DNA of 58,827 nt, from NCBI GenBank assembly GCA_937894085.1, contig CALCSG010000507.1:1-58827 (forward strand), in the 5' to 3' direction. Of the stretch, positions 2,721 to 20,314 are shown in pieces. Under the pieces are notes generated by a model. That model did no database searches. It saw only the letters and a list, made by a program, of their open reading frames with translations, and was not told the DNA's origin. How positions within the stretch are numbered: position 1 is the first letter of the stretch; each line of letters opens with the position of its first letter. Origin of the DNA: an uncultured Gammaproteobacteria bacterium. GTDB taxonomy: Bacteria > Pseudomonadota > Gammaproteobacteria > GCA-001735895. A program made the position numbers and the translations under genes.

Positions 2721-2774
2721 ATTGTTAAATTCCTAAATTGATTGAATAGCCATGCATTTATTGACCATGCAGGA

Positions 2775-3500
2775 TTACCAGGCGACGTCATCGAGTGTTT
2801 CACTCTGTTGATCGAAAGGCTCTTCATCTTCTTTACGCAGCGGATTATCGGCACGTACCAGTTCATCATCTGATATATGAATTTGCTGTTTGCGCCTTGG
2901 CAGATAATGATTAGACGGACGTGCGCCCCATTCCGGTTGCAACTGATATCCGCCCTGTTCTCGGATCGCCCTGGATGCTTCTGAATCGGCATCATGCACA
3001 TCACCAAAAATACGTGCACTGGTCGGACAGGCCATCACACAGGCAGGTTTACGTTCTTCCTCTGGCAAGTTCTTATCATAGATACGGTCGACGCATAATG
3101 TACACTTTTTCATGACCTTGCCGAGTTCATCAAATTCACGTGCACCGTAAGGGCATGCCCATGAACAGTACTTACAACCGATACATTTGTCATAATCCAC
3201 CAGCACGATACCGTCTTCCTCGCGCTTATAGCTGGCGCCGGTAGGACATACCGGTACGCAAGGTGGATCTTCGCAATGCAAACAGGATTTCGGAAAATGC
3301 ACGGTTTCTGTATTCGGATAACAACCGACCTCGTAGGTCTGAACCCGGTTAAAGAATACACCGGATGGATCTTCGTCATACGGGCGTTGATCCGGTAACG
3401 GCCCCGCCCAACCGGATGTATTCCATTGTTTACAGCTAGTGACACAGGCGTGACAACCCACACATACATTTAAATCAATTACCAACGCAAGTTGTGTCAT
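2775..3500 (-). CDS. soeB: Sulfite dehydrogenase Fe-S subunit SoeB
   Basis: Four ferredoxin-type Cys groups (CVGCHAC, CLHCEDPPC, CIGCKYC, CTLC...PAC); overlaps the soeA stop. Confidence 0.88.
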   Translation of the reverse strand: MTQLALVIDLNVCVGCHACVTSCKQWNTSGWAGPLPDQRPYDEDPSGVFFNRVQTYEVGCYPNTETVHFPKSCLHCEDPPCVPVCPTGASYKREEDGIVLVDYDKCIGCKYCSWACPYGAREFDELGKVMKKCTLCVDRIYDKNLPEEERKPACVMACPTSARIFGDVHDADSEASRAIREQGGYQLQPEWGARPSNHYLPRRKQQIHISDDELVRADNPLRKEDEEPFDQQSETLDDVAW

Positions 3501-6406
3501 TTGATACCCTCTTTTTTACGAAAAACGCCTGCAAAATACGACTGCCATTTCCCATTTCGTTTCTTTTGCCCCGGCAACTGCTTAAGCATTGGAAATTGCG
3601 GTGAAGTCTCCTGCGGTTCAGCATCATCGGCTTTATATATTTTAACCCGTACATCAAACCACGCAGCCTGCCCGGTCACTGGGTCCGAGTTAGAGAGGTG
3701 ATCACCTGCCTCACATTTTGGTAATTCTTCCGGAATCAAATGATTTAACAGGAATCCCTTTTTCGACTCGTTAGCTTTAGCCGATAATCCCCAGGCACCC
3801 GGGGCTTTACCAATCGCATTCCAGGTCCATACCGTACCCGGCTCAACTGCTTCGGAGTAACGACACATACAACGTACTTTACCGGTTGGGGATTCAACCC
3901 AGATCCAGTCACCGTCCTCAATACCTTTTGGCTTAGCGGCAAGTGGATTCACAAACAGATAGTTATGGGTATGAATCTGACGCAACCAGGCATTTAATGA
4001 ATCCCACGAGTGGTACATCGCCATAGGACGTTGCGTCAGGGCATTCAATGGATAATCCTGGGTGTTAGATAAACGTGATAACAATGTTTCACTGTAAAAC
4101 GGTAGAGGGTCGAAATTCTGCTCAATGCGTTTACGCAGACGATCTGGTGGCTGACGCCCTGTTGTTTTACCCTGCGCTGCCAGACGGAATTTCTGCAGAG
4201 GTTCAGAATATAGATGAATAGTAATCGGCTCTGCATAACGCGTCATACCATGCGCACGTGCCCAGTTCAGGTAACCCTTGTTCCAGTTACGCATGTATTG
4301 ATAAGACTTGGGCAGTTCGTAATGATAAACACAGCCATTCTTCTGGTACATTTCCCACTGGCGTGGATTAGGTTCACCTTTCAGAAACTTCTCGCCGCCT
4401 GTTCCTCGCCAGCCGGCCAGAAAACCAATACCGGAACCGGGAGAGGTTTCATAGTTGGTTATAAAATCAGGATAATCACGATATTTTCGCTCACCATCTT
4501 TATCAACAAAAGCTGGCAGTCCCAGTCGTGATCCCAGTTCGATCAGCACTTCCTGAAATGGTTTACATTCACCGGTTGGCGGTACCACAGGAATACGTAC
4601 AGCATCCACCGGGCCGCTGTATTCGGAAATAGGACGATCTAACATAGATAGAGCATCGTGACGCTCCAGATAAGTTGTATCGGGTAGCACCAGGTCGGCA
4701 AACGCTACGGTTTCTGACTGGAATGCATCACACACGATCAGAAATGGAATCTTGTATTCGCCGTTTTCATCCTTGTCTTTCAGCATGTCTCGCACACTCA
4801 CCGTATTCATCGACGAATTCCATGCCATATTGGCCATGAACAGCAACATGGTATCGATTTTGTACGGATCACCTCGCCAGGCGTTGGTGATAACATTGTG
4901 CATCAGGCCGTGTACTGATAACGGATATTCCCAGGAAAAAGCCTTGTCGAGACGTACCGGCTCACCTTTATCATCGATGAACAAATCTTCGGGTTTGGCT
5001 GGCCAGCCCAGAGGCATACCGTCGAGTGGCGTATTTGGCTGCACGCCATGTTCACTATTAGGCGGTTTAGGACAAGGTGGAATTGGGCGCGGAAAAGGTG
5101 CCTTGTGACGGAACCCGCCCGGACGATCAATAGTACCCAACAGTGTCATCAGGATACTGAGTGCGCGAATCGACTGGAAACCATTGGAGTGAGCTGCCAG
5201 ACCGCGCATTGCGTGAAACGCAACCGGGTTACCCTTGACTGACTCATGCACATTATCCCAGCAATCTTCCCACTGAATAGGTAACTCGATCTGATGGTCA
5301 CGAGCGGTAACACCCATTTCATGAGCCAGACGGATTATGTCTTCAGCAGGAATGCCGGTGATGCCTTCCGCCCATTCAGGGGTATATTCCTCGACCCGTT
5401 CTTTCAATAGCTGAAATGCCGGTTTTACAGCAGTACCATCTTCCAGCGTAAATGAACCCATCAGGCGAGGATCGACACCTGGAGTATGAGTAGAAATTTC
5501 CCTGTCAATCGCTGGATCCCACCACAGTTTGTTTTCAGGATCAAAACAACCTTCTTCAATATGCATTTCAAAACGCTTGAACAGTCCATGATCATCACGT
5601 TTCTCATCAGTGACAACCAGTTCAGCAGAGTTAGTGTATTGAACCAGGAACTCACGGTCGTATAAACCCTGTTTGATTAACTGGTGGATAATAGCCAGGA
5701 TCAAAGCACCATCAGTCCCCGGTTTGATAGGTACCCATTCATCAGCAATAGCAGAGTAACCACTACGAATCGGGTTGATGGAAATAAACTTGCCACCGTG
5801 ACGTTTGAACTTGGATATATGTATTTTTAACGGGTTTGAATCATGATCTTCTGCAGTACCGAACATCACAAATAACTTGGCACGTTCCAGATCAGGGCCA
5901 CCAAATTCCCAGAATGAACCACCAATCGAATAGATCATTCCGGCTGCCATGTTCACCGAACAAAAACCACCATGGGCGGAATAATTAGGTGTACCGAACT
6001 GTTTGGCGAACATACCAGTGAGGGCCTGCATCTGATCACGCCCGGTACACAGGGCAAACTTTTTGGGATCGTCAGCACGAATTTTCGCCAACCGCTCTGC
6101 CATGATATCGAAGGCTTTTTCCCACGAGATTTCTTCAAATTCAGAATCACCACGTTCAGCGCCTGGCTTACGTAATAAAGGTTTGGTTATACGTGCCGGA
6201 GAATATTGCTTCATGATACCGGATGAACCCTTGGCGCAAATTACTCCCTGATTATGCGGATGTTTCGGGTTACCTTCGATATAACGTATCTCACCATCTC
6301 TCAGTGTGACTTTTATACCGCAACGACAGGCACACATGTAGCATGTAGTCTCTTTGACTTCTATATTGCCTATATCACGGTCCGATTGGCTCGTTGGATC
6401 CTGCAT
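3497..6406 (-). CDS. soeA: Sulfite dehydrogenase molybdopterin subunit SoeA (969 aa)
   Basis: TTCYMCACRC...CAKG [4Fe-4S] motif, GGFCSVN Mo-ligand region and C-terminal MPT dinucleotide domain; no Tat signal. Start set at ATG 6406 rather than the ORF-track 6484. Confidence 0.85.
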   Translation of the reverse strand: MQDPTSQSDRDIGNIEVKETTCYMCACRCGIKVTLRDGEIRYIEGNPKHPHNQGVICAKGSSGIMKQYSPARITKPLLRKPGAERGDSEFEEISWEKAFDIMAERLAKIRADDPKKFALCTGRDQMQALTGMFAKQFGTPNYSAHGGFCSVNMAAGMIYSIGGSFWEFGGPDLERAKLFVMFGTAEDHDSNPLKIHISKFKRHGGKFISINPIRSGYSAIADEWVPIKPGTDGALILAIIHQLIKQGLYDREFLVQYTNSAELVVTDEKRDDHGLFKRFEMHIEEGCFDPENKLWWDPAIDREISTHTPGVDPRLMGSFTLEDGTAVKPAFQLLKERVEEYTPEWAEGITGIPAEDIIRLAHEMGVTARDHQIELPIQWEDCWDNVHESVKGNPVAFHAMRGLAAHSNGFQSIRALSILMTLLGTIDRPGGFRHKAPFPRPIPPCPKPPNSEHGVQPNTPLDGMPLGWPAKPEDLFIDDKGEPVRLDKAFSWEYPLSVHGLMHNVITNAWRGDPYKIDTMLLFMANMAWNSSMNTVSVRDMLKDKDENGEYKIPFLIVCDAFQSETVAFADLVLPDTTYLERHDALSMLDRPISEYSGPVDAVRIPVVPPTGECKPFQEVLIELGSRLGLPAFVDKDGERKYRDYPDFITNYETSPGSGIGFLAGWRGTGGEKFLKGEPNPRQWEMYQKNGCVYHYELPKSYQYMRNWNKGYLNWARAHGMTRYAEPITIHLYSEPLQKFRLAAQGKTTGRQPPDRLRKRIEQNFDPLPFYSETLLSRLSNTQDYPLNALTQRPMAMYHSWDSLNAWLRQIHTHNYLFVNPLAAKPKGIEDGDWIWVESPTGKVRCMCRYSEAVEPGTVWTWNAIGKAPGAWGLSAKANESKKGFLLNHLIPEELPKCEAGDHLSNSDPVTGQAAWFDVRVKIYKADDAEPQETSPQFPMLKQLPGQKKRNGKWQSYFAGVFRKKEGIK

Positions 6407-6608
6407 ACCTGAATTTTCCCGTATAAAAAGTAAAAACTCCAGTCCCGAATAAAGGATTAACTGGAGTATCCATAAAGCTAACACATTAATTACTTTATTC
6501 TAATATTCAAATATTGATGGTGCAACCCCAGCATTGAAGGGGTATTAACAGCATAAGAGATAGGGGTTATATCTCTGATTGGGTGAAAGACCAACAAAGT
6601 GACCGAAT

Positions 6609-7307
6609 TCACCAGCTACACTGCCCGGATTTTTCCTGAAGCATTTTCAAATAATCCTGGTGATGGCCTAAATCCTCTTCAGATACTTTCCACAACGTTA
6701 ATCCTGCGTTATTGATTGTAGCAACCGAAACACCTTCAACATGATCTGCCTGTTCTCCATCTTCAGCTTCCAGAGTGAGCGCAGTCTGCCCGCCCGTCAT
6801 TAGCAGGTAAACTTCGGCTAAAATTTCAGAGTCGAGTAATGCTCCATGCAGTGTCCGGTGACTGTTATCTATTTCATAACGACGACATAAAGCATCCAGA
6901 TTATTTTTTTGCCCGGGATGCTTCTGCCGAGCCATCACCAGCGTATCCAGTACACTACATATTTCACCGATGGATGGCTTTGAGTCATCCAGTAATTTTA
7001 TTTCATTGTTCAGAAACCCGACATCGAACGGTGCATTATGAATGATTAACTCGGCACCTTTTATGTACTGCAGAAAATCATCAACCAGCTCATGAAAGCG
7101 TGGTTTATCCTGCAGAAATTCGTTACTGATACCATGTACATTAAAGGCTCCTGCATCAACTTCCCGATCCGGATTTATATAATGATGCCAGTGATTATCA
7201 GTTACCCGCCGGTTGATTACTTCAATGCAACCAATTTCAATAATTCGATGTCCCTGCGAAGGTTCTAAACCTGTCGTTTCTGTATCCAGAACTATTTGAC
7301 GTGCCAT
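6609..7307 (-). CDS. dnaQ: DNA polymerase III epsilon subunit
   Basis: RQIVLDTETTG, HNAPFD and HGALLDSEIL exonuclease motifs; C-terminal H..YL tail. Confidence 0.97.
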   Translation of the reverse strand: MARQIVLDTETTGLEPSQGHRIIEIGCIEVINRRVTDNHWHHYINPDREVDAGAFNVHGISNEFLQDKPRFHELVDDFLQYIKGAELIIHNAPFDVGFLNNEIKLLDDSKPSIGEICSVLDTLVMARQKHPGQKNNLDALCRRYEIDNSHRTLHGALLDSEILAEVYLLMTGGQTALTLEAEDGEQADHVEGVSVATINNAGLTLWKVSEEDLGHHQDYLKMLQEKSGQCSW

Positions 7308-7753
7308 TATCCTCTTCCTGTATTTTCATCAATACCCTGATTAGCCAGCTGATCGGCTATTTCATTGCCATGAACACCTGAATGTCCTTTAACCCAGTTC
7401 CATTTAATATTATGTCTGGAAGCTTCATTATCCAGCAACTGCCAGAGGTCAACATTCTTAACCGGCTTTTTCGCCGCTGTTTTCCAGCCATTTTTTTTCC
7501 AGCCAGCCATCCATTCGGTAATACCCTGCAGGACATATTTGGAATCGGTGTTTAAGTCAATATGACAGGGACGTTTGAGAGCCTTCAAACCTTCAATCAC
7601 TGCAGTCATTTCCATTCGATTATTAGTGGTTTCGGGAGCAAACCCGTATAAATTTTTACGAGAGCCATCGTATTCCAGATACACGCCCCAGCCACCGGGA
7701 CCCGGGTTGCCTCTACAGGCTCCATCAGTAAATAATATTACTTTATTTGTCAT
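7307..7753 (-). CDS. rnhA: Ribonuclease HI
   Basis: [42 protein letters not shown]. Confidence 0.97.
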
Positions 7754-8639
7754 ATTTTTTAGTTGTCATGTTTAACCTGGAAATATCAATTGAGCGCGAA
7801 AAAGATATGTAAGGTATTGATATACACGGTGAATTAAGAACTTGCGTATTCTTGCGTGTTTTAACTGATTTTTCCAGGTTCAAGCCCCGGCCTACTGTGG
7901 GTCTTACCACGGGTGATAAAACCTGACGTTTAACCCAGCGCTGTCTGATCGGTGTTAAGGGAATGGTATTTTTTTCAAAGACTAAAATATTTAAGGCTGC
8001 AGAAAATTTCAACCAACGTTCACTAAATTTACTCAATATACGTGAGCGGGCAATCAGATTCGGATAATTGAAAGGCGGGATAAAGCCACATTTAAATTGA
8101 TGTAACTGATCAAAGCCTAATAAACTAGCCCAGTCATTCAGGCGTCCTGCCGTATAATAATGCCCGGCCCAGGGCGCATCATCCAGCCAGCCCTGCAACA
8201 TATGGCGCAAACCCCAGAAGGAAACAGGGTTGAAATCGATAATAATTAACTTTCCGTCAGGAATCAGCACCCTGTTTGCTTCACGCAAAATAGCATGCGG
8301 GTCTTTTGACTGGGATAGTGAATGCATCAGCACCACCAGATCTGTGCTATCACTGGCGACAGGCAAAGAACTACTATCAATCAACACCTGCTGCTGCCCA
8401 TCATCCCCCTGACCGAAGCGAAACACATGATTGATACGGCATTGCTGCATCAATTCAGCAGATTGATTAATGCAGCCCAATTGCACAGCATAATAACCAA
8501 AACTGGTTGCCAGCACCGAGTCCAGGCGACTTTTTATCTGTTCAACCAGATATTGGCCCAGAGCTGTTGAATACCAGGCATCCAAACTTAAAGAATGGTG
8601 CAAGTGATGATATTTTTTAAATTTTTTAGTAATTTTCAA
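7743..8639 (-). CDS. yafS: Class I SAM-dependent methyltransferase (YafS-like)
   Basis: [43 protein letters not shown]; usual position upstream of rnhA. Confidence 0.8.
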
Positions 8640-8712: not shown

Positions 8713-10512
8713 GTGACTAAAAATAAAACTAAATTATTGATAATAATCCAGCTAGCCGCCTTCCTTACGATAAGCGGTTGTAAAACGATGTTTACTGAAA
8801 ACGGCTTTACGGCAAAACCGGATACCGCTCTATCTACAGCTGTATCTATTGATAGCCAGACATCAACGCAACCATTGCAAATCGAAAAAATCGCTAATAG
8901 CTCAGATGACAGTATAGCAAATGTAGAGATTAAGCCGACAGAAAACTATCTATCGCAAAACGATCTATCTGATTTCGATGCACAGGCAGCACAGATTCAC
9001 CAGGAATTAATTCAGCTACAGAATAATAATAAGCCGGAAAATCCACCTGTTGATGTTGAGGAAATAGCCCAGCTGGCGGAAATAGCGCTGCAAAATGAAA
9101 CCAATGCCTGGAGTCGCCTGCAATCAGGCATGCAAATGAATCCAGTAATGAATGACAGGGTTCAATCTCAACTTGACTGGTTTCTGGCTCATCCGGAATA
9201 CCTTACCCGGGTAATGCAACGAGCCTCTCCTATTCTTCCCTTTATTCTGGATGTTATTAACGAAAAAAATCTGCCTACAGAGATGGCTCTTTTACCCATC
9301 GTTGAAAGTGCCTATCAGGCATTTGCTTACTCACATGGCCGCGCTTCCGGCATGTGGCAAATCATACCATCTACCGGTAAGCATCTTGGACTAAAACAAA
9401 ACTGGTGGTATGACGGTCGACGCGACATTATTGAATCTACCCATGCTGCCACCGATTATTTGCAAAGCCTTGCTGGACAGTTTGATAATGACTGGGAACT
9501 GGCACTGGCTTCTTACAATGCCGGTCCCGGCAAAATTCGTTCTGCGATCAGGTACAATAAAAAGAAAGGCAGAAAAACAGATTTCTGGCATTTAACCCGT
9601 ATTCGCCCCGAAACTAAAAACTATGTGCCCAAATTATTAGCTCTGAAAGAATTATTTTCCCACCCGGATAAATACGGGCTTGACCTATTGCACATTGAGG
9701 ATGTACAAAGTTATGAAATAGTAGAGCTGGATAGTCAGATCGACCTGGCATTAGCCGCCGACCTGGCCGACATTACCACTAAAGAGCTTTACCAGTTAAA
9801 CCCTGCATTCAACCGTTGGGCTACCGCTCCGAATGGACCTCACCGGTTATTACTGCCTAAGGAGAATACTCAACAATTCAAAGATAACCTGGCCCAACTT
9901 CCAAAAAGCAAGCGCATAAACTGGGTTCGGTACAAGATTAAAAATGGTGACACCCTTAGTCAAATTGCAAAAAAATATCGAACCAGTACGGCTTTAATAA
10001 AAAATGTTAACCAGATTAAAAAAACTAACATTCGTGCTGGTAAATACCTGTTAATTCCAACGGCTACCAAATCTATAAAACAATACACCTTGAGCCAAAA
10101 TTCACGTCTGAATAAGATTAAGAATACTTCACGCCAGGGTCAGAAAATTACCCATATAGTTAAATCCGGTGATAGCCTGTGGAGCATTTCGCAACGCTAT
10201 AATGTAAAAACCCGCTCTCTGGCAAAATGGAATGGCATGGCACCTATCGATACTTTAAGTATCGGTCAGGAGCTGGTCATCTGGAAAACGACAAAAGCCC
10301 AGGCCCAGCACGTCAGTCTGCTTGACACCAGCCCTCAGCATAAAATGCATGCACTTCGATACACGGTACGTAAAGGAGATTCTTTATCACGTATCGCCGA
10401 TAAATTTAATTTACGTGTTGCCGACATAAAAAAATGGAATAAAGTCGGAAAATATATTAAACCCGGTCAAAAACTAAAACTATATGTCGACATCACCCGT
10501 CAATCAGGTTAA
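8713..10512 (+). CDS. mltD: Membrane-bound lytic murein transglycosylase D (SLT + 3 LysM), lipoprotein
   Basis: Lipobox TISGC; LLPIVESAY, ASGMWQIIPST, LALASYNAGPG; three LysM repeats (YKIKNGDTL, HIVKSGDSL, YTVRKGDSL). Confidence 0.93.
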   Translation: MTKNKTKLLIIIQLAAFLTISGCKTMFTENGFTAKPDTALSTAVSIDSQTSTQPLQIEKIANSSDDSIANVEIKPTENYLSQNDLSDFDAQAAQIHQELIQLQNNNKPENPPVDVEEIAQLAEIALQNETNAWSRLQSGMQMNPVMNDRVQSQLDWFLAHPEYLTRVMQRASPILPFILDVINEKNLPTEMALLPIVESAYQAFAYSHGRASGMWQIIPSTGKHLGLKQNWWYDGRRDIIESTHAATDYLQSLAGQFDNDWELALASYNAGPGKIRSAIRYNKKKGRKTDFWHLTRIRPETKNYVPKLLALKELFSHPDKYGLDLLHIEDVQSYEIVELDSQIDLALAADLADITTKELYQLNPAFNRWATAPNGPHRLLLPKENTQQFKDNLAQLPKSKRINWVRYKIKNGDTLSQIAKKYRTSTALIKNVNQIKKTNIRAGKYLLIPTATKSIKQYTLSQNSRLNKIKNTSRQGQKITHIVKSGDSLWSISQRYNVKTRSLAKWNGMAPIDTLSIGQELVIWKTTKAQAQHVSLLDTSPQHKMHALRYTVRKGDSLSRIADKFNLRVADIKKWNKVGKYIKPGQKLKLYVDITRQSG

Positions 10513-10626
10513 TTTCAATTTTACCAACCCGCTCACATTAAAAACATTGAGACCTATTGATTTCTCCGCTTAACGGTTACAAAATAGGTTTTCAGATACA
10601 GCTGTCGTAGGAAAAGCTTACTCACC

Positions 10627-11685
10627 ATGCCAACAGAAATTGATCCAAACGCCATAAAAGAACTGTCACCGATCAATTCATTAAATCATGAGAACGTTCA
10701 GGATTTAATAAAAAAAATAAAACTGGAAACAATTAACCCCGGTCATTACCTGTTTAAAAAAGGCGATATGGACAAGGCTCATGTTTACGTCATGAAAGGT
10801 ACCATTGAACTTGTTTTAAACAAAAAAATCATCAAAACAATTACTGGCGGCTCGGAAGACAGTAAACACCCGATAGCTCATTCCTTTCCGCGTACAGTTT
10901 CTGCAAGAGCTAAAACAGCCACCTCTATAATCCGCGTCAATAGTGACATGCTTGATATTATGCTTACCTGGGATCAAACGGGTAGCTACTCTGTAGAATC
11001 ACTCGAAGAGTCGGATAATGATGATTCCACTGACTGGATGACACGCATTTTACAAACCCGCGCTTTTCATAGAATACCCCCTGCTAACATTCAGGCGATG
11101 TTTATGCGCATGGAGACTGCACACTATAAACCGGGTGATATTGTCATCAACCAGGACGACACGGGCGACTACTTCTATATTATCAAAGAAGGCCGCTGCA
11201 TGGTTACCCGTTCTACTCCTGCAAACCCCAAAGGAGTGAAACTGGCAACTTTATCGGTAGGTGACAGCTTTGGAGAAGAGGCATTAATTTCTGAAAGTAA
11301 ACGAAATGCAACTGTTACCATGCTGACTGAAGGTAATCTAATGCGCCTGAATAAGGATGACTTTAATTCATTATTGAATGAACCCTTACTCAACTGGGCA
11401 GACTATGCAGAAGCAAAAAAGGTTATTGATGAGGGTGGCTTATGGCTCGATGTCAGGTTACCGGCTGAGTATAAAGCCAAACGCATTAAAAACAGCATCA
11501 ACATTCCACTTATTTTTTTACGCATGAAGGCGAACTCACTGGATAGCAGCAAAAAATATGTGATCTATTGTGATACTGGAAGACGTAGTTCTGCAGCTTC
11601 ATTCCTGTTGAATGAAAGAGACATTACTTCTTATGTGTTAACAGGTGGAGTCGATAACGCCGCACCAGATGATATCGAAGAATAA
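10627..11685 (+). CDS. Tandem cyclic-nucleotide-binding domains fused to a C-terminal rhodanese domain
   Basis: CNB-A (LFKKGD...HSFPRTVSA, degenerate), CNB-B (GDYFYIIKEG...GDSFGEEAL...KRNATV, canonical), rhodanese (LDVR..EY...I..SINIP...YCDTGRRS). Confidence 0.85.
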   Translation: MPTEIDPNAIKELSPINSLNHENVQDLIKKIKLETINPGHYLFKKGDMDKAHVYVMKGTIELVLNKKIIKTITGGSEDSKHPIAHSFPRTVSARAKTATSIIRVNSDMLDIMLTWDQTGSYSVESLEESDNDDSTDWMTRILQTRAFHRIPPANIQAMFMRMETAHYKPGDIVINQDDTGDYFYIIKEGRCMVTRSTPANPKGVKLATLSVGDSFGEEALISESKRNATVTMLTEGNLMRLNKDDFNSLLNEPLLNWADYAEAKKVIDEGGLWLDVRLPAEYKAKRIKNSINIPLIFLRMKANSLDSSKKYVIYCDTGRRSSAASFLLNERDITSYVLTGGVDNAAPDDIEE

Positions 11686-11779
11686 TAGAATCAAATATAA
11701 ATTGAGAACCACCCTTAACCACACTGATCACTGATAAACCCGGCACCTTCAGCATTACCAGAAGTTAAGAATTCAGGTA

Positions 11780-13387
11780 TTAATTCAGGTAAGCCATCTC
11801 AGAAATTTCGTTTGCAGTATCTATCTGTTCCGGATCAAGAAATTCTTCTGCATATTGCAGATAAACCTTTTCACCTACAAAAATATCGTATATATCAGGG
11901 TCGATATGATTATCCTGTTTCATAAAACTCATGATTTTCAGACACTCTGAAAGCTTTTTGCCTTTTTTATAAGGCCGATCAGAAGCCGTTAAAGCTTCAA
12001 AAATATCAGCAATAGCCATTATTCTTGTCTGAATAGACATTTCATCTTTGCGTAATCCCTTTGGATAACCGGTACCATCCATTTTCTCATGATGACCACC
12101 AGCATATTCAGGTACATTTTTTAAATGTTTAGGAAATGGCAGTGATTCAAGCATATTGATTGTGGCAACAATATGATGATTAATAACTTCTCGCTCTGCC
12201 TCATTTAGTGTCCCTTTACGAATTTTTAAATTCAATAATTCATCTTCACTCAGTAGCGATACCGTCTCACCTTTCATATTAATCCACTGTAGCTGCGCAA
12301 TCGAATTGACGCGATCAATATACTCATCCGTCATGAACTCTCCGCCCACGTTTGTCCTTTGTAGAAATTCGAAATCAAGTTTTAATTGATCGCATTGTTC
12401 ATTATAGCGAGTCGTCAAACCCTCAATTGATAGTCCCTGCTGCTGATAACTTTTACAGTTTTTTAAATATTCAATTTCCTTATCCCTTAATAAAATCTCA
12501 ATCTTATGTTCAATTATATGTATTCGATCAAATATTGTTTCCAGCTTTGTTGACTTATCCATCACATATTCGGGAGTCACAACCTTACCGCAATCATGTA
12601 ACCAGGCTGCGGTCTCCAGTTCATAACGATCTTTATCAGAAATGTGAAATGTTTGCAGTGGACCGGCATTCACCTTATTAACTGCCTCGGCCAACATCAT
12701 CGTCAATACAGGAATACGACGACAATGCCCTCCGGTATAAGGTGATTTATCATCGATCGCACTCGCAATCATTTTAATAAATGCTTCAAAAAGTTCCTGC
12801 AATTCATTTAACAGGCGTTTTTGAGTTAACGCTACTGCCGCCTGTGAAGCAAGTGATTCAGCTAACTGCTGATCGACTTCAGTGAAGCTGATTACGGAAC
12901 CAGTCTCAGGATCTTTAGCATTGATCAATTGCAAGACACCAATAATCTCACGCTCATGGTCTTTCAGCGGAAAAGTAAGAATAGATTGAGTTTTATATCC
13001 GGTAGAACTATCAAACTGTCGGGCACCGGTAAAATCATACCCATCTTCGTTATAGGCATCTTCAATATTGATGGTTTGCCCGGTTAATACACAATGACTG
13101 ACAACCATATGATGATTTTCACTGCCATCGTCAAGATAAAGCGGTAAAGCATCGAATTCTATTTTATTACCGGAAGTCCCTCCCATTTGTATCGATAACG
13201 AATCGTTTGAAATAATTTCAAATGATAGTGAATTTTGTTTGACAAAATATAGGGTTCCGCCGTCCGCATGGGTAAGAGCTTTTGCTCCCATCATAATTAA
13301 TTCAAGCAGTTTACCCGTGTCTTTCTCGGCAGATAAAGCTATACCAATTTCAGTCAGCCGATCAATTCTTTCCAGTAATTCATTCAT
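11780..13387 (-). CDS. GAF + HD-GYP cyclic-dinucleotide phosphodiesterase
   Basis: N-terminal GAF (ADGGTLY...GVLQLIN); YTGGHC, LHDCGK, HHEKMDGTGYPKGL, IADIFEALTASDRPYK. Confidence 0.88.
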   Translation of the reverse strand: MNELLERIDRLTEIGIALSAEKDTGKLLELIMMGAKALTHADGGTLYFVKQNSLSFEIISNDSLSIQMGGTSGNKIEFDALPLYLDDGSENHHMVVSHCVLTGQTINIEDAYNEDGYDFTGARQFDSSTGYKTQSILTFPLKDHEREIIGVLQLINAKDPETGSVISFTEVDQQLAESLASQAAVALTQKRLLNELQELFEAFIKMIASAIDDKSPYTGGHCRRIPVLTMMLAEAVNKVNAGPLQTFHISDKDRYELETAAWLHDCGKVVTPEYVMDKSTKLETIFDRIHIIEHKIEILLRDKEIEYLKNCKSYQQQGLSIEGLTTRYNEQCDQLKLDFEFLQRTNVGGEFMTDEYIDRVNSIAQLQWINMKGETVSLLSEDELLNLKIRKGTLNEAEREVINHHIVATINMLESLPFPKHLKNVPEYAGGHHEKMDGTGYPKGLRKDEMSIQTRIMAIADIFEALTASDRPYKKGKKLSECLKIMSFMKQDNHIDPDIYDIFVGEKVYLQYAEEFLDPEQIDTANEISEMAYLN

Positions 13388-13640
13388 ATAAAAGGCTAGT
13401 ACAGTTGAGCACTTAAACTAATAGTCCCGGTTTATGTTAAACATAAAGTGTAGTTCAACAATTACATTTATACTGTAGAATGAAGAATCTTATTAAAATT
13501 TTAAGCTACCTGTGTCACAAAACTTGATAACTATAAATATAAATCAAATTTATAATGTATTTAAGCTGGAAAAATTGCCGTTTCCTACCTATTATCCTTA
13601 CTCTTTATATAAATAATAAATACCTTAATGTGGAGAGGGC

Positions 13641-16274
13641 ATGAAATCCCATTTCTGGAGTACCGACTGGTTTATCGGTTTAATCATAACCATAATTATC
13701 ATACTGTCTTCAGGATCCAATCAATTACAAAGTCTTGAGCGTGAAGCTTATGACTGGGGTGTAAGATCAACTGAGCGTTTTCCTTCTGAAAAAATAGCTG
13801 TCATTGCTATTGATGATGTCAGTATTGCTAATATTGGCCGATGGCCCTGGCCTCGAGATCTGCATGCAGATATGATTAAGCAACTTGCAGAAGGTGGCGC
13901 CAAGGTCATAGGTCAAACTGTTTTTTTTCTTGAACCACAAACTGATCCCGGGATGGTTTATATCCGGGAATTAGTAAATTTTTTCTCAAATGCCAGCTTC
14001 AATGATATACCTGCAGACATAGATACTTTATCTACTCTCATTGAATCCGATAAGAAACACCGTGCAACAGCTGACCTTTTACAATTTTTTCTGCAGACCA
14101 ATCTACATACACGATTAAATCAGGATCTGGACACACTCAAATCAAGACTATTTGCAGCAGAGCAGGCACTGGATACCGATAGCAAACTGGCAGACAGTAT
14201 GTCCAGAGCAAAAAATGTCGTGCTTGCCATGCCTTTCATTCTGGGTACACCGCGTGGTAAACCGGATCAGCAATTACCAAACTATATTTTAAAAAATGCC
14301 TTATCGACAATTCACGACAGGGTTCAGGCACAGGCTCAGGGGCTTTACCCCATTACCTCGATTGACGCCATAGTCCCCATTCCTAAACTTGGTGCTGTAG
14401 CTTCTGCTATCGGACATTTAAATATAATACCTGATGTTGATGGTGCTATCCGTTCTGAAGCTCTGGTAATCAAGCATTATGATCGCTTCTACCCGTCGCT
14501 GGCCTTGCAACTGGCCGCGAAAAGCCTCAACTTGAGTAACTCTGATATAAAAGTAAATCTGGCTGAAAGTGTGGAGTTAGGCTCACTCAAAATTAAAACC
14601 GATAGCCAGCTTATGATGAACACCTTTTATTACTCCGATATCGAAGGGTTTCCTGCATTCCAGGTAGATTCATTTTACGATGTCTACTCGGGTAAAATTC
14701 CCATAGAAAAGTACCAGGGTAAAATAGTTATCATTGGTGCTACTGCCGTCGGCGTGGGTACCAACCAGGTAACGCCTATTGATTCTGCCATGCCTCCTGC
14801 ATTATCACTTGCCCACTCTGTTTCCAGTATTTTAAATGAAGACTTTTTCATCAATCCTGAGTGGGGTATCTGGGTAAGACTCGGTGCCTTCCTGTTTGTA
14901 GCTATTTACCTGATGCTCATCATGCCACGTTTAAAAGCAGGTGTTGCTGCCGCTCTGACTCTGCTTATTCTGGTTGGCTTACTGGCAAGTCATTTCATCC
15001 TGATGACATCAAACACCATGTGGATTCAACTCATGGGACCGGCAGCCCTGCTTGTCATAGGGCACCTGTTGATAACCACTAAACGATTTCTTGCCACCGA
15101 ACGCGGTAAAATTAAATCAGACGAAGAATCCTCAGAAAGCAACAGAATGCTCGGCATAGCCTTTCAGTCACAGGGTCAGCTCGATATGGCCTTTGAGAAA
15201 TTCAGAAAATGCCCGCTGGATGATTCAGTTATGGAAGCCATGTATAACCTGGCACTCGATTTCGAACGAAAACGCCAGTTCAATAAGGCGACCAGTGTCT
15301 ACCAGTATATGTCAAAACACGACACTCAGTTTCGTGATATCAAAGTTCGTATGGATCGCGCACAGCAGATGGAAGAAACCGTTATGTTTGGTGGTAGTGG
15401 CGGACACGCTGGTGGAACCTTACTACTCGATGGTAACAACATAGAAAAACCCATGCTGGGACGTTATCAAGTTGAAAAAGAGCTGGGCAAAGGTGCGATG
15501 GGCATAGTTTATCTGGGTAAAGATCCTAAAATTAGCAGGGTTGTTGCCATTAAAACAATGGCTTTAGCGCAGGAATTTGAACAGGATGAACTGGAAGAAG
15601 TAAAACAACGATTCTTCCGCGAAGCAGAGACTGCCGGACGTTTAAGCCACCCGAATATCGTCACCATCTTTGATGCCGGTGAAGAACATGACCTTGCCTA
15701 TATTGCGATGGAATTTCTGAAAGGCTCTGATCTGGCTCCACATACTAAAAAAGATAACCTGCTGGACATGAAAACAGTCGTCAGTATCGTCATACGTTCT
15801 GCGGAAGGCCTTGCATTTGCACACGCACAAAACGTTGTGCACAGAGATATCAAACCTGCTAATTTAATGTATGAACCAGAATCAGATAGTTTAAAGATTA
15901 CCGATTTTGGTATCGCGCGCATAACTGATTCAAGCAAGACAAAGACCGGCATGGTCCTTGGCACACCGTCATACATGTCTCCAGAACAGTTAGCAGGAAA
16001 AAAAGTAGATGGCCGTTCTGATTTATTTTCACTAGGCGTCATGTTGTATCAGTTACTTTGCGGTTCCCTGCCCTTCAAGGCAGAATCAATGGCCAGCCTA
16101 ATGTTCAAAATAACCAATGATGAGGCTCCTGACATCCTTACTTATAGACAGGACATACCGCAATGCCTGATCCCAATTATTAATAAAACGCTCATAAAGG
16201 ACGCTGATAAGCGCTACCAGACTGGAACGGATTTAGCCAATGACTTAAAACTTTGCCTTATGAAAATGCAGTAA
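13641..16274 (+). CDS. CHASE2-sensor membrane Ser/Thr protein kinase (CHASE2 - 3 TM - TPR-like - Hanks kinase)
   Basis: CHASE2 motifs (IDDVSIANIGRWPWPR, PDVDGAIR); three hydrophobic helices; LGKGAMGIVY, VAIK, HRDIKPAN, DFGIAR, GTPSYMSPEQ. Confidence 0.92.
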   Translation: MKSHFWSTDWFIGLIITIIIILSSGSNQLQSLEREAYDWGVRSTERFPSEKIAVIAIDDVSIANIGRWPWPRDLHADMIKQLAEGGAKVIGQTVFFLEPQTDPGMVYIRELVNFFSNASFNDIPADIDTLSTLIESDKKHRATADLLQFFLQTNLHTRLNQDLDTLKSRLFAAEQALDTDSKLADSMSRAKNVVLAMPFILGTPRGKPDQQLPNYILKNALSTIHDRVQAQAQGLYPITSIDAIVPIPKLGAVASAIGHLNIIPDVDGAIRSEALVIKHYDRFYPSLALQLAAKSLNLSNSDIKVNLAESVELGSLKIKTDSQLMMNTFYYSDIEGFPAFQVDSFYDVYSGKIPIEKYQGKIVIIGATAVGVGTNQVTPIDSAMPPALSLAHSVSSILNEDFFINPEWGIWVRLGAFLFVAIYLMLIMPRLKAGVAAALTLLILVGLLASHFILMTSNTMWIQLMGPAALLVIGHLLITTKRFLATERGKIKSDEESSESNRMLGIAFQSQGQLDMAFEKFRKCPLDDSVMEAMYNLALDFERKRQFNKATSVYQYMSKHDTQFRDIKVRMDRAQQMEETVMFGGSGGHAGGTLLLDGNNIEKPMLGRYQVEKELGKGAMGIVYLGKDPKISRVVAIKTMALAQEFEQDELEEVKQRFFREAETAGRLSHPNIVTIFDAGEEHDLAYIAMEFLKGSDLAPHTKKDNLLDMKTVVSIVIRSAEGLAFAHAQNVVHRDIKPANLMYEPESDSLKITDFGIARITDSSKTKTGMVLGTPSYMSPEQLAGKKVDGRSDLFSLGVMLYQLLCGSLPFKAESMASLMFKITNDEAPDILTYRQDIPQCLIPIINKTLIKDADKRYQTGTDLANDLKLCLMKMQ

Positions 16275-16346
16275 AATCATGATTCATTATTATCCTTTAA
16301 AAACTATCTTTTTCCGAATGCAAATTTTATCTGTGCGAGAGCGGAC

Positions 16347-17168
16347 ATGAACCTGCAGGGCAAGATACAGATTGTCGGAAAAACTGATACCGGAAGGGTT
16401 CGACAAAATAACGAAGACTGTATTGGTTTTGACAGTGCATTAGGGCTACTTGTTTTAGCAGATGGCATGGGGGGACACCTCGGAGGTGAAGTTGCAAGCT
16501 CACTCACTGTCGATAGCATCATTAAATCTTCTCAGAATCACCTGCCCTCTATCAAGGCCGGTCAAATTGACTCTGAAACAGGTTTTTCACTTGAATCCAT
16601 CTGTATTCAGGAAGCCGTTGAGCTGGCAAATGACCTCGTTTATCGTAAATCAACTGAACAGCTTGAACTTCGTGGCATGGGCACCACATTAGTGGCGATG
16701 GTATTTTACGATAATCGATTTTCTCTGGCGCATATTGGTGATTCACGGTGTTATCGCTTTAGAAATAACAATTTAGACCAGATTACCAAGGACCATTCAC
16801 TGTTGCAGGAACTGGTGGATCGTGGTTTTTACACGCCCGAAGAAGCCAAGAAATCGCTCAATAAAAACCTGGTAACCAAGGCATTAGGCATAGACCCCAC
16901 AACAACACCGGATGTTCAGGAAGATTTAGCCATGAAAAATGATATCTACCTGCTATGCTCTGATGGATTAACAGATTTAGTAGAAGATGAATATATAAGC
17001 TTAACTATTCAGAGATTTAGTGATAATCTAGAAGAAGCTGCCAAGCAATTGATTACAAAGGCAAACCAGAATGGTGGAAAGGATAATATTTCTGTTATTC
17101 TGTGCCGAATAATTGAAGATTTTTCGGAATCTCCGGGCTGGTTCAAAAAATTAATTGAATGGTTTTAA
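16347..17168 (+). CDS. PP2C/Stp1-family Ser/Thr protein phosphatase
   Basis: TDTGRVRQNNED, ADGMGGH, MGTT, HIGDSR, LCSDGL, GGKDNIS. Confidence 0.92.
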   Translation: MNLQGKIQIVGKTDTGRVRQNNEDCIGFDSALGLLVLADGMGGHLGGEVASSLTVDSIIKSSQNHLPSIKAGQIDSETGFSLESICIQEAVELANDLVYRKSTEQLELRGMGTTLVAMVFYDNRFSLAHIGDSRCYRFRNNNLDQITKDHSLLQELVDRGFYTPEEAKKSLNKNLVTKALGIDPTTTPDVQEDLAMKNDIYLLCSDGLTDLVEDEYISLTIQRFSDNLEEAAKQLITKANQNGGKDNISVILCRIIEDFSESPGWFKKLIEWF

Positions 17169-17256
17169 ATGGATTACAGTGAAAGCTTTATCACTGAATA
17201 TGAAACATTTTAAGTTTTCTCAGAAGCAATAACTTAACACGAGGCTGGACATAGAC

Positions 17257-17979
17257 ATGGTCGCAAAATTGGTAATGACATCAAACTCAGGGGAACACGA
17301 AGAAATCCCTCTTACCAAGGAAACTACAACCATTGGGCGTAAACCTAGTAATGACATTCATATTGATAATTTATCTGTGAGCGGTAATCATGCGCAGGTT
17401 ATTACTATTCTTGAAGATTCTTTCCTCGAAGATTTGGGCAGCACCAATGGAACGTATGTTAATGGAAAATTAATCAAGAAACATGCTCTGGAACACGGTG
17501 ACAAAATCACTCTGGGCAAATACCAGATATCCTATGAAAGCAGCTCCGGTGGTTCAGATCAGGATTTTGAACAAACCATGATTATCCGTCCAGGTGAAGC
17601 CGGTATGCCGGAAGAAGCAGGTAGTAAGGAAATAGATAAGTCAGTACAAAAAATATCAGCTGCTATCGCCTCTGAAACTGCTTCTACTAACAGATCTGCT
17701 ACTGAGGATAAGACAGCCTGCTTACAACTATTAAGCGGAGCTAATGCCGGCAAAGAGCTTGTGCTTAAAAAAGCACTGACCACTATTGGACAACCCGGAG
17801 TTCAGGTAGCAGCTATCACAAGACGGCCACAGGGCTTCTTTTTAATTCACGTCGATGGAGGCCCGGACAATAACGTGCCTAAAGTAGCAGGTAGCCCTAT
17901 TGGATCGAATGCCCATCAGTTAAATGACCATGACATCATTGAAGTTGCCGGTGTCAAAATGGAGTTTTATACCAAATAA
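17257..17979 (+). CDS. FHA-domain protein (canonical N-terminal FHA plus degenerate C-terminal FHA-like domain)
   Basis: TIGRKPSND...SVSGNHA...DLGSTNGTYVNG; the second region LLSGANAGKELVL...TIG...LNDHDIIEVAG lacks the GR/SxxH residues. Confidence 0.85.
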   Translation: MVAKLVMTSNSGEHEEIPLTKETTTIGRKPSNDIHIDNLSVSGNHAQVITILEDSFLEDLGSTNGTYVNGKLIKKHALEHGDKITLGKYQISYESSSGGSDQDFEQTMIIRPGEAGMPEEAGSKEIDKSVQKISAAIASETASTNRSATEDKTACLQLLSGANAGKELVLKKALTTIGQPGVQVAAITRRPQGFFLIHVDGGPDNNVPKVAGSPIGSNAHQLNDHDIIEVAGVKMEFYTK

Positions 17980-17985
17980 ACAGGC

Positions 17986-18036
17986 TAGAGTGTCACTCTA
18001 AATAAAGTCTCTAAAGTTGAATTTAGCGACTTTATT
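17986..18036. other. Palindrome plus hairpin between the FHA and cyclase genes
   Basis: TAGAGTG-T-CACTCTA (17986-18000), followed directly by AATAAAGTC.CTAAA-loop-TTTAG.GACTTTATT (18001-18036). Confidence 0.4.
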
Positions 18037-18082
18037 GCAAGTGTTACCGGCTTCAGTATCCCAATAAACTGAGGAGAACTCT

Positions 18083-20314
18083 ATGCGACTGCAACAAATT
18101 TTTAGGCTTTCTTTAAGCCTTCTAATTTTAATTGCTTTGCTAATTGATTCTTCCGGTTTGTTTCACTATCCCTTCCTGCAAAAACTGGAAAACTGGACTT
18201 ACGATTCCAGGCTGAACTTCACGCTTCCGAATACGATCGATGATCAGGTTGTCATTATTGATATAGATGAAACCTCTCTGGAAAAAATTGGAAGATTCCC
18301 ATGGAAAAGGGATATTCTTGCCGAACTGGTCAATAACCTGTTCGAATTTTACCAGGTAAAAACACTTGGCTTTGATATAGTATTTGCCGAAAAAGATACC
18401 AGCTCCGGTTTAGAAGCTTTTACGAAACTGGCTGAGAATGAACTCAAAGATGATCCTCAATATCAAACTGCACTCGAAAAACTACGACCTTCGTTACAAT
18501 ATGACCACCTCTTTGCACAAAGTTTATTAAATAAAGATATTGTATTAGGCTATTACTTCAGGTCTGGCGTGAAACAGGGTGAAGCAGCCGAAATTGGATC
18601 TTTACCCTTAGCCATTACCCAAATGACTGAGGAGTGGAGTAAGCGCTTACCCATTTATAAATCAGAAGGGTATAGCGCAAACCTTCCAGTGCTACAAAAA
18701 GCTTCCAAATCCGGCGGCTATTTTGATAACCCATCCGTTGATGCAGATGGCGTTTTTCGACGTGTTCCGCTAATTCAGTCATACAACAGTTTCTTATATT
18801 CATCACTGGCATTAGCCACTGCCCGACTGGCACTAGATGACCCTAAAATCGAGCTTATCATCGAAACAGACGGCAAAAAGAACGGACAGGATTATTTCGC
18901 ACTGGAAGCTATCAACCTTGGGCAAAACAAAATACCAGTTGATCATAATGGTGCCGTGTATGTGCCATATCGGGGTAAACAGGGCAGTTTCAATTATATT
19001 TCAGCCTATAAAATTCTGCATAAAACGGCAGATGCAAATCTGTTAAAAGGCAAGATTGTACTGGTAGGTACAACGGCTCCCGGCTTACTGGACCTGCGCT
19101 CTACACCGGTACAAAATGTTTACCCGGGAGTAGAAGTTCATGCCAATATCATATCTGGAATATTGAATCAGACTATAAAACAAAAACCAGCCTGGGCCAT
19201 AGGATATGAATTTGTCATCCTTATCCTGATTGCAATAGCCATGTTCCTGGTACTCACTTATCTCTCGCCTACGCTGGCCGCAATCAGCTCACTGATAATT
19301 ACTTTAATTGTCATTACTGGAAATATACTGGCCTGGAACAGCTTATTGATTTTACCTCTGGCATCTCCCCTGCTGTTAATAGCACTGATGTTCACTTTGC
19401 ACATGACTTACGGTTTCTTCATAGAATCCAGAGGTAAGCGCCAGTTAGCGCACATGTTCGGACAATATATTCCCCCTGAGCTGGTGGATGAAATGAGTGA
19501 AACAGCCTCCGAGTTTTCGCTTGAAGGAGAAAGCAGGGAAATGACGGTACTGTTCTCAGATGTGCGCGGATTTACCACGATTTCGGAAGGTCTTGACCCT
19601 AAACAATTGACCAGCCTGATGAATGCTTTGTTAACACCAATGACACGCGTTATTCATAAAAACAGGGGAACCATCGATAAATACATGGGTGATGCCATCA
19701 TGTCATTCTGGGGAGCCCCCCTTCACGATCCGGAGCATGCCCGACACGCATTATATGCCGCCTTTGACATGATGGATGAATTGAAAATCATGCAGCAGGA
19801 ATTCCGTGAAAAAGGCTGGCCAGAAGTCAATATAGGTATTGGTTTGAACACCGGCATTATGAATGTCGGTAATATGGGGTCAGAATTCAGAGTCGCTTAT
19901 ACAGTGCTGGGAGATGCAGTTAATCTCGGCTCTCGATTAGAGGGCCTGACCAAAGCCTATGGCGTCAATATCATTGTTAGTGAAACGACCAGGTCAGCAG
20001 TTCCAGAATTCATTTTTCGCCAACTGGATGTTGTTCGAGTTAAAGGCAAAAACGAACCCATCGCGATCTTTGAGCCTATAGGCCACAAAAATGATGTCGA
20101 GAAATCCGTCATTTCTGAACTATCACGCTACAATCAGGCACTCAGGGTATATCACCAGCAAAATTGGGATAAAGCTGAAATGGAATTTTTCAATCTTTCA
20201 CAGTCCAATAAGAACTGTCAATTATATAAGGAATATCTCAACCGCATTACAAGTTACCGTAAAGCCCCTCCAGACGACAACTGGGATGGCGTCTACACTC
20301 ATACAACGAAATGA
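18083..20314 (+). CDS. CHASE2-sensor class III adenylate cyclase
   Basis: CHASE2 (IDIDETSLEKIGRFPWKR, DADGVFRRVPL); 3 TM; LFSDVRGFT, DKYMGDA, GIGLNTG, YTVLGDAVNLGSRLE (Lys/Thr adenine-specifying residues, Asn/Arg transition-state residues). Confidence 0.9.
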   Translation: MRLQQIFRLSLSLLILIALLIDSSGLFHYPFLQKLENWTYDSRLNFTLPNTIDDQVVIIDIDETSLEKIGRFPWKRDILAELVNNLFEFYQVKTLGFDIVFAEKDTSSGLEAFTKLAENELKDDPQYQTALEKLRPSLQYDHLFAQSLLNKDIVLGYYFRSGVKQGEAAEIGSLPLAITQMTEEWSKRLPIYKSEGYSANLPVLQKASKSGGYFDNPSVDADGVFRRVPLIQSYNSFLYSSLALATARLALDDPKIELIIETDGKKNGQDYFALEAINLGQNKIPVDHNGAVYVPYRGKQGSFNYISAYKILHKTADANLLKGKIVLVGTTAPGLLDLRSTPVQNVYPGVEVHANIISGILNQTIKQKPAWAIGYEFVILILIAIAMFLVLTYLSPTLAAISSLIITLIVITGNILAWNSLLILPLASPLLLIALMFTLHMTYGFFIESRGKRQLAHMFGQYIPPELVDEMSETASEFSLEGESREMTVLFSDVRGFTTISEGLDPKQLTSLMNALLTPMTRVIHKNRGTIDKYMGDAIMSFWGAPLHDPEHARHALYAAFDMMDELKIMQQEFREKGWPEVNIGIGLNTGIMNVGNMGSEFRVAYTVLGDAVNLGSRLEGLTKAYGVNIIVSETTRSAVPEFIFRQLDVVRVKGKNEPIAIFEPIGHKNDVEKSVISELSRYNQALRVYHQQNWDKAEMEFFNLSQSNKNCQLYKEYLNRITSYRKAPPDDNWDGVYTHTTK

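Follow-up and report, generated by a model that had tools for sequence, protein, structure and literature searches.

To our knowledge, few bacterial effectors of cyclic AMP (cAMP) are known besides the CRP-type transcription factors. According to a recent review, cAMP acts globally only via CRP in most bacteria (PMC11139211). The gene described here, CNB-Rhd, comes from an uncultured gammaproteobacterium and encodes two cyclic nucleotide-binding (CNB) domains, CNB-A and CNB-B, followed by a rhodanese domain. It is found at positions 10627-11685 of a stretch of 58,827 nucleotides (contig CALCSG010000507.1 of assembly GCA_937894085.1), which is called the window throughout. What CNB-Rhd connects with cAMP may be sulfur chemistry and not transcription. 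Such a link is possible because a cyclic nucleotide monophosphate (cNMP) module and a rhodanese are joined in one protein, and because the gene belongs to a conserved signalling cluster beside what is likely to be its cyclase. On balance, the domains and their conserved residues favor a soluble, cytoplasmic, non-transcriptional cAMP receptor in which a rhodanese output (persulfide or sulfurtransferase) would take the place of a DNA-binding domain.

The best sequence and fold matches of CNB-Rhd are the regulatory subunit of protein kinase A (PKA-R) and the regulatory region of protein kinase G (PKG), with which it shares tandem CNB domains. In contrast to these, CNB-Rhd is bacterial, has a canonical site only in CNB-B, lacks an inhibitor or dimerisation segment, and carries its effector domain in cis; the combination of two canonical sites with an N-terminal segment that defines the PKA-R/PKG module is not found in it. 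In the mycobacterial acetyltransferase MtPat (Rv0998), an N-terminal CNB domain precedes a C-terminal acetyltransferase domain, and cAMP relieves autoinhibition. The CNB regions of MtPat and CNB-Rhd are homologous (NF058543, E 1.7e-10), but CNB-Rhd has a rhodanese instead of a GNAT domain as well as two CNB domains. The CbpA protein of Pseudomonas aeruginosa is reportedly another bacterial receptor of cAMP outside CRP; of its CNB domains the N-terminal one is described as degenerate and the C-terminal one as functional, and it is not known to have a rhodanese. Unlike CRP/FNR proteins, CNB-Rhd has no helix-turn-helix domain in Pfam, and its C-terminus is the rhodanese. None of the NCBIfam equivalog models reaches its cut-off with CNB-Rhd; the scores are 40 versus 460 bits for Pat, of which it is therefore not a member, 26 versus 266 for CRP (NF008732), and 39 versus 102 for the rhodanese PspE.

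The rhodanese domain has described relatives of its own. E. coli PspE, GlpE and the YgaP-type rhodaneses have the alpha/beta fold and the six-residue C-x-x-G-x-R/Q-S loop in common with CNB-Rhd. Compared to PspE-type rhodaneses, CNB-Rhd is cytoplasmic by sequence, is fused to two CNB domains, and has a conserved Asp directly after the active-site Cys. Assignment as a PspE orthologue is excluded by the scores with NF007627 and TIGR02981 (39.2 versus 102 and 36.1 versus 126.3 bits).

A 2007 census lists, as 'Other_bacterial' CNB family 23, CNB domains of bacteria that are joined to a 'Rhodanese homology domain' (Kannan et al. 2007, PMC2246266), an entry that names neither a ligand nor an activity and defines no subfamily or gene context. 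The JGI pipeline gives such proteins the name 'CRP-like cAMP-binding protein/rhodanese-related sulfurtransferase'. In full-text searches of the literature that census was the sole mention found; they gave no functional study of a CNB-rhodanese protein, nor one of a cluster of CHASE2 kinase, PP2C, FHA and cyclase genes. Encapsulin papers have cNMP domains and rhodaneses only in separate proteins. CNB-Rhd is a member of a very large family that is annotated but uncharacterised. What is new here is the cluster of CHASE2 cyclase and phospho-signalling genes, the monophyly of the cluster-linked clade, the strong dependence on a cyclase, the evidence of selection on CNB-A, and the giant coiled-coil relatives with an FGE-sulfatase domain.

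Domains and conserved sites of CNB-Rhd

The gene and the parts of its product are located as follows:

10627..11685, plus strand: CNB-A / CNB-B / rhodanese gene (CNB-Rhd), 352 amino acids, stop codon included (open reading frame, Pfam domains, orthologues)
10654..10977, plus strand: CNB-A, residues ~10-117, a divergent CNB fold (second Pfam stretch; Foldseek match to PKA-R/PKG; predicted local distance difference test score, pLDDT, 80-94)
10846..10911, plus strand: non-canonical phosphate-binding cassette of CNB-A, residues 74-95, without FGE, three residues longer, with near-invariant Pro88-Arg89
10978..11031, plus strand: acidic Ser/Thr-rich linker, residues 118-135, predicted disordered (pLDDT <50)
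11032..11391, plus strand: CNB-B, residues 136-255, canonical cNMP-binding domain (best Pfam stretch 166-251, predicted secondary structure)
11260..11322, plus strand: phosphate-binding cassette of CNB-B, G212...F215-G216-E217...R226-N227-A228-T229 (family alignment)
11404..11661, plus strand: rhodanese domain, residues 260-345 (Pfam PF00581, solved relatives)
11569..11589, plus strand: active-site loop C315-D-T-G-R-R-S321 (gapless PspE alignment, family counts)

A CNB-CNB-rhodanese fusion had been proposed in an earlier note made from the DNA sequence. The exact 352-residue open reading frame, Pfam and Foldseek all agree with this, and every motif quoted in that note is in place. The Pfam model cNMP_binding (PF00027) matches in two stretches, of which residues 166-251 are the best, with 89.6 bits versus a cut-off of 27.5 (E 1.3e-25); Rhodanese (PF00581) matches residues 261-343 with 49.3 bits versus 22.2 (E 7.1e-13). 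Gene calls in other collections give products of 305 and 300 amino acids (P0003, P0105), from a later ATG or truncated (window 10627-10767). The start that yields 352 residues is regarded as correct because L13, P15 and L19, which precede that later ATG, are conserved in homologues. The sequence shows neither a signal peptide nor a hydrophobic stretch, so CNB-Rhd reads as cytoplasmic. The full-length AlphaFold2 model (36-sequence alignment, mean pLDDT 80.8) consists of two beta-barrel CNB domains, a disordered linker and an alpha/beta rhodanese; CNB-B plus rhodanese modelled alone has a pLDDT of 89.3 and a predicted TM-score (pTM) of 0.67. In Foldseek the whole model matches the tandem CNB-A/B of PKA-R and PKG with E ~1e-19.

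The second domain, CNB-B, has a canonical site. The earlier note had called it canonical on the string FGEEAL...KRNATV (residues 215-230); CNB-B retains all canonical residues of the phosphate-binding cassette, and F215, G216, E217 and R226 are 98-100% conserved. Residue counts were taken from two alignments, a diverse set (n=142: the query and the module of 141 representatives of 50%-identity clusters) and a set of 116 close orthologues, each at least 73% identical. In the diverse set G212 is found in 139 members, F215 in 141, G216 and E217 in all 142, R226 in 139, N227 in 130, and A228 and T/S229 in 134 each. The Phe-Gly-Glu (FGE) string and Arg226 occur in 116/116 close orthologues. The pair in the cassette is Arg-Asn and not the Arg-Thr of PKG-type sites. 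The C-helix of CNB-B (residues 243-254) is predicted to enter the rhodanese, from residue 260, after about five linker residues.

Among solved structures, the rhodanese domain is best matched by PspE, the rhodanese domain of CoA-persulfide reductase, and TVG0868615. The sequence YCDTGRRS aligns without gaps to YCNAGRQS of E. coli PspE, and also to the rhodaneses of CoA-persulfide/disulfide reductases. Since the alignment with PspE is gapless, the loop is of the six-residue sulfurtransferase type and not the seven-residue Cdc25 type; a phosphatase of the Cdc25 / Acr2 type (C-X5-R) was considered and is excluded by this CDTGRRS loop, which is as long as that of PspE. The active-site Cys loop CDTGRR (315-320) noticed earlier is present. 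Lack of conservation of its Cys had been set in advance as a refutation of the idea. Cys315 is kept in 136 of the 142 diverse members and in 116/116 close orthologues, and the remainder of the loop is nearly as constant in the diverse set (D316 in 123, T/S317 in 120, G318 in 129, R320 in 127, S321 in 137). A D-V-R...E motif is also found in the domain. By sequence, then, this is a catalytic-type rhodanese, with PF00581 above its cut-off and a Cys that opens a six-residue loop.

The first domain, CNB-A, is harder to classify. Its cassette is unusual, but the fold is that of a true CNB domain, because Foldseek matches it to the tandem CNB of PKA-R and PKG. The cassette consensus is G-[TS]-[ED]-x-A-R-[HY]-P-L-A-x-x-Q-P-R-Q-L-S-A-R-A, without FGE. 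The Gly-Glu pair and Arg of a canonical cNMP site, both found in CNB-B, are not found together in CNB-A, although P88-R89 is retained. The sole candidate for the ribose-binding Glu, at position 77, is not conserved (P in 52, A in 22 and E in 13 of the close orthologues). With the conserved Glu absent and the cassette longer, CNB-A probably does not form a second site for cNMP. The domain is non-canonical yet not decayed: Pro88 is present in 141 and Arg89 in 138 of the 142 diverse members, the cassette is more informative than the rest of the domain (2.60 versus 2.12 bits), and this near-invariant Pro-Arg indicates that CNB-A is under selection. The conserved Pro-Arg cassette suggests that CNB-A either binds another ligand or serves as a docking surface.

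The two CNB domains are joined by an acidic Ser/Thr-rich linker, as the earlier note had described. Its string SYSVESLEESDNDDSTD occupies residues 120-136 and is predicted to be disordered. In the family the linker follows the pattern DQ-[ST]-x-x-Y-x-V-x-E-[IL]-acidic run-DWM.

The signalling cluster and its nucleotide

Downstream of CNB-Rhd the window contains the following genes:

11780..13387, minus strand: GAF-HD-GYP phosphodiesterase-type gene, convergent with CNB-Rhd, variably present (Pfam GAF and HD_5)
13641..16274, plus strand: CHASE2 sensor and Hanks-type Ser/Thr kinase (Pfam CHASE2 and Pkinase)
16347..17168, plus strand: PP2C Ser/Thr phosphatase of the Stp1/IreP family (Pfam; NCBIfam NF033484, 248 bits versus 230)
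17257..17979, plus strand: FHA-domain protein (Pfam FHA)
18083..20314, plus strand: CHASE2 sensor and class III cyclase, predicted adenylate cyclase (Pfam CHASE2 and Guanylate_cyc)

The order CNB-Rhd, (HD-GYP), kinase, PP2C, FHA, cyclase is found throughout the GTDB family of the window (tblastn, 90 related loci). It has also been observed in three loci (L075, L076, L079) whose CNB-Rhd protein is only 50-55% identical. Three further GTDB families have the cluster: f73 (G096, G292), f121 (G144, G320), where the cyclase orthologue of G320 is on a separate contig, and f213 (G236), where the signalling genes are kept and mltD is absent. The CHASE2 kinase and the CHASE2 cyclase share the same type of sensor domain, and the cluster (13641-20314) adjoins dnaQ-rnhA in several families. 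In a FastTree tree of 165 modules all orthologues linked to the cluster fall into one clade (SH-like 0.958), which has 19 tips and none from non-cluster loci. The members of this short-form clade have three full domains, CDTGxRS, R-N-A-T, P-R in CNB-A, and synteny with the CHASE2 kinase, PP2C and FHA genes, and CNB-Rhd has all of these. In the clade of the window, CNB-Rhd is a fixed member of a conserved signalling cluster that occurs in at least four GTDB families, with the kinase, PP2C, FHA and cyclase genes keeping both their order and their orientation.

Two Thr residues of the linker, T118 (112/116 close orthologues) and T135 (116/116), were considered as docking sites for the FHA protein and rejected. 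T118 is also nearly invariant in short forms outside the cluster, and residue 135 varies across representatives of the cluster clade, so that neither has a cluster-specific signal.

The GAF-HD-GYP gene behaves as an indel. It is present in most loci and absent from several, including L023, L024, L028, L034, L044, L092 and L094. In loci without it, no more than ~100 nucleotides separate CNB-Rhd from the kinase gene, which lies downstream on the same strand (e.g., L092, L094, L075). An arrangement of this kind, together with the PKA-R and PKG tandem CNB-A/B as best structural matches, would be expected for a PKA-R-like subunit that inhibits the neighboring Hanks-type kinase or PP2C and releases it on binding cAMP. 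The explanation nevertheless seems improbable. CNB-A begins at about residue 10, which leaves no N-terminal inhibitor or pseudosubstrate segment or docking domain, and the A site is non-canonical. The rhodanese loop, conserved as much as the CNB-B cassette, would be left unexplained, and the kinase is absent from non-cluster and long-form loci.

In the neighboring cyclase the two substrate positions are a Lys (in DKYMGD) and a Thr (in YTVLGDAVN), which for class III cyclases is the adenylate cyclase pattern. The genome of the window has three more cyclase domains (contigs C159, C461 and C60), all with the adenylate-type Lys, and a guanylate-type Glu was not seen in any of the four cyclase domains located by tblastn, out of five PF00211 matches in the genome. 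The CHASE2 cyclase next door is the likely source of the ligand of CNB-Rhd. The ligand of CNB-B is itself likely to be cAMP, because the cyclases that were located carry the adenylate-type Lys and the pair in CNB-B is Arg-Asn instead of the PKG-type Arg-Thr.

It is very improbable by comparison that CNB-Rhd prefers cGMP, or senses both cAMP and cGMP, through a PKG-type cGMP site in CNB-A. The earlier note had leaned to cGMP on the basis of the string FPRTVS (residues 87-92), which lacks FGE and keeps Arg followed by Thr. The string is as described, and PKG proteins are among the top sequence matches, but Arg89-Thr90 fails as a sign of cGMP. Thr90 occurs in 8 of the 142 diverse members, where the consensus is Gln, and the close orthologues have P (44), S (39) or T (20) at this position; the Glu of CNB-A is not conserved either. 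The PKG matches stem from CNB-B with its Arg-Asn, and no guanylate-type cyclase is among the four that were located.

The dependence on a cyclase is also seen across genomes. For a census of the module, 300 genomes were drawn evenly across the class Gammaproteobacteria. A class III cyclase is found in 114/123 carriers of the module compared to 79/177 non-carriers, an odds ratio of 15.7 (p 2e-19) that, like the others from this sample, is not corrected for shared ancestry. Relatives of the CHASE2 cyclase of the window (E <=1e-60) are found in 57/123 carriers and 46/177 non-carriers (odds ratio 2.5, p 3e-4). Outside the cluster other layouts have been observed. For example, the module gene is directly convergent with a CHASE2 cyclase in three genomes (G187, G248, G026). 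A fourth, G119, has two such sites: on contig C12 a CHASE2 cyclase shares 10 kb with a long form and a short paralogue, and on contig C5 another short copy is found at a distance of 5 kb from a CHASE2 cyclase.

Matches to anti-phage proteins have also been obtained. PADLOC matches CNB-B to the CNB-TIR effectors of Pycsar systems (E 1e-11), and for the cyclase domain it gives PycC (E 6e-32), as would be expected of a Pycsar-like module of cyclase and CNB effector. These matches span only the generic CNB and cyclase domains, with no TIR or pore effector domain, and the cyclase bears a CHASE2 membrane sensor. The locus is part of the core genome, beside dnaQ-rnhA in several families, and since it is syntenic across them it is not a variable defence island. 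The defence explanation, which merits hardly any credence, was rejected on the generic matches and the conserved synteny.

If CNB-Rhd is a cAMP receptor with a rhodanese output, its action can be pictured as follows. CHASE2 would sense an envelope or extracellular cue and turn on the cyclase, and the cAMP produced would occupy the site of CNB-B. The lid or C-helix of this domain, which leads straight into the rhodanese, would then move as it does in other CNB proteins. Such movement could expose or occlude Cys315 and in this way control the formation of a persulfide or its transfer to a partner. The order of a CNB domain followed by an enzyme domain is the same as in known cAMP-regulated enzymes.

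Several observations weigh against this picture. In the window the GAF-HD-GYP gene, on the opposite strand, separates CNB-Rhd from the kinase operon. In a scan of 10300-13800 for promoters and terminators, promoter-like matches were fewer than in shuffled sequence, and the gap between mltD and CNB-Rhd contained no terminator. Many relatives, such as those at loci of the Nevskiales type, are in housekeeping surroundings without signalling genes, and in 9/123 carrier genomes PF00211 had no match above the threshold applied. Confidence in the geometry between domains is moderate (pTM 0.50 for the full-length model and 0.67 for the shorter one). The conserved Asp316 beside the Cys is unusual in a thiosulfate-binding loop, and therefore the sulfur donor may not be thiosulfate.

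A different role for the same residues, possible though doubtful, is that of a coincidence sensor or adaptor, in which persulfidation of Cys315 (sulfane sulfur or redox) and cAMP at CNB-B together would set the binding to the kinase, phosphatase, FHA or HD-GYP protein. CNB-Rhd would then act in signalling and would have no substrate in metabolism. Synteny is fixed only with signalling genes, and sulfur-relay partners such as TusA or DsrE were not found near CNB-Rhd in the loci examined. The conserved non-canonical surface of CNB-A could be the docking site, the module is N-terminal in the long forms, a typical position for a sensor, and the modest enrichment of the family in genomes with SoxB fits as well. 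Against such an adaptor, many relatives have no signalling neighbors, and the sequence features suit an enzyme equally.

Family, long forms and sulfur oxidisers

The family to which CNB-Rhd belongs is very large. A word-indexed protein search gave at least 7989 significant matches among 8000 scored candidates, of which the best 120 are 73-100% identical, and 1317 clusters at E <=1e-30 were found when 1.84 billion representatives were searched exhaustively. In the census the full module is present in 123/300 genomes, often in 2-4 copies, or ~40% of the evenly sampled gammaproteobacterial genera (107/271); members in databases number in the thousands. By these numbers, and by the pipelines that already annotate it, the fusion is not unusual. 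All 25 genomes of the GTDB family of the window, the query genome included, have one orthologue each (71-86% identity), that of G018 being fragmented at contig ends. The Olavius algarvensis Gamma 3 endosymbiont has a relative that is 73% identical and shares the synteny. More distant relatives, at 47-49% identity, have been detected in metagenome-assembled genomes of Oceanococcus, Stagnimonas and Nevskiaceae.

Short forms outside the cluster have a different setting. A fadB-like gene and a 4HBT thioesterase gene are found upstream, and the genes pilZ-holB-tmk-mltG-pabC-pabB-fabF are convergent (e.g., L077:7913-14360).

Other relatives are much longer than CNB-Rhd. In these long forms, of 1000-1900 amino acids, the same module of 345 residues at the N-terminus is followed by a charged coiled coil of ~1000 residues, and an FGE-sulfatase domain (PF03781) makes up the C-terminus, for example at L091:7207-12252 and L095:6682-10692. 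About three quarters of the best 150 representatives of 50%-identity clusters exceed 420 amino acids, and the FGE-sulfatase domain was detected in 3 of 8 that were scanned. The architecture of module, coiled coil and FGE-sulfatase domain appears to have no earlier description. In the FastTree tree long and short forms are largely apart with weak support (SH-like 0.376), the short-form clade holding seven long representatives.

Given these relatives, one may tentatively think of the module as a widespread head with two inputs, cAMP at CNB-B and a second ligand or partner at CNB-A, along with the persulfide state of Cys315, and of CNB-Rhd, in its own clade, as the cytoplasmic effector of a dedicated pathway made up of the CHASE2 adenylate cyclase and the CHASE2 kinase, PP2C and FHA proteins; this wider proposal is the less probable part of our account. 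If true, the giant coiled-coil proteins with an FGE-like domain at their end would be controlled by this same head, and the family would represent a general non-transcriptional cAMP output tied to sulfur or redox chemistry.

Were its members persulfide carriers or sensors under the control of cAMP, the family would be a major unstudied post-translational output of cAMP. The family would offer a handle on what CHASE2 sensors detect, and on the roles of Hanks-kinase/PP2C/FHA modules in chemolithotrophs. The cluster suggests the CHASE2 cyclase as a candidate source of the signal and also contains candidate partners. CNB-Rhd is small and soluble, and the idea is therefore directly testable in vitro.

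Enrichment of the family in sulfur oxidisers had been raised as a possibility, and in the census it is real and modest. The module is found in 62% of SoxB-positive versus 29% of SoxB-negative genomes (odds ratio 4.1, p 1.6e-8). If only genomes with a cyclase are counted, the odds ratio of module and SoxB is 3.2, and that of SoxB and cyclase alone is 3.1; since these are nearly the same, the enrichment is no bigger than a generic lifestyle correlation. SoxB is missing in 54/123 carriers, and the Nevskiales genomes also carry the module. Their members Oceanococcus and Stagnimonas we take to be heterotrophs. The earlier interpretation is plausible in outline; it was wrong on cGMP and overstated both the rarity of the fusion and its link to sulfur oxidisers.

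Flanking genes

Upstream of CNB-Rhd the window contains an operon for a molybdoenzyme:

1740-6484, minus strand: SoeCBA-like molybdoenzyme genes (molybdopterin subunit, 4Fe-4S subunit, DmsC-like anchor; domain matches)

The earlier note had placed CNB-Rhd in an organism with SoeABC. The genes found here are putative Soe genes: NCBIfam has no curated SoeA model, and the best match, PhsA, is far under its cut-off. The genome does have SoxB, in two copies of near-equal score (C107:4169-5953 and C269:1355-3193), each split by an insertion. They may be paralogues or reflect strain or bin heterogeneity (the estimate of bin contamination is 4.3%).

In the region 1740-8639 the SoeCBA-like operon is followed by dnaQ, rnhA and a YafS-like methyltransferase gene, all on the minus strand, and mltD, divergent on the plus strand, adjoins CNB-Rhd. 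MltD was considered as a functional partner and rejected, as it belongs to a housekeeping block of mltD, methyltransferase, rnhA and dnaQ and is absent in G236 despite the signalling cluster there. The order of this block presumably echoes the mltD-gloB-yafS-rnhA-dnaQ neighborhood of E. coli.

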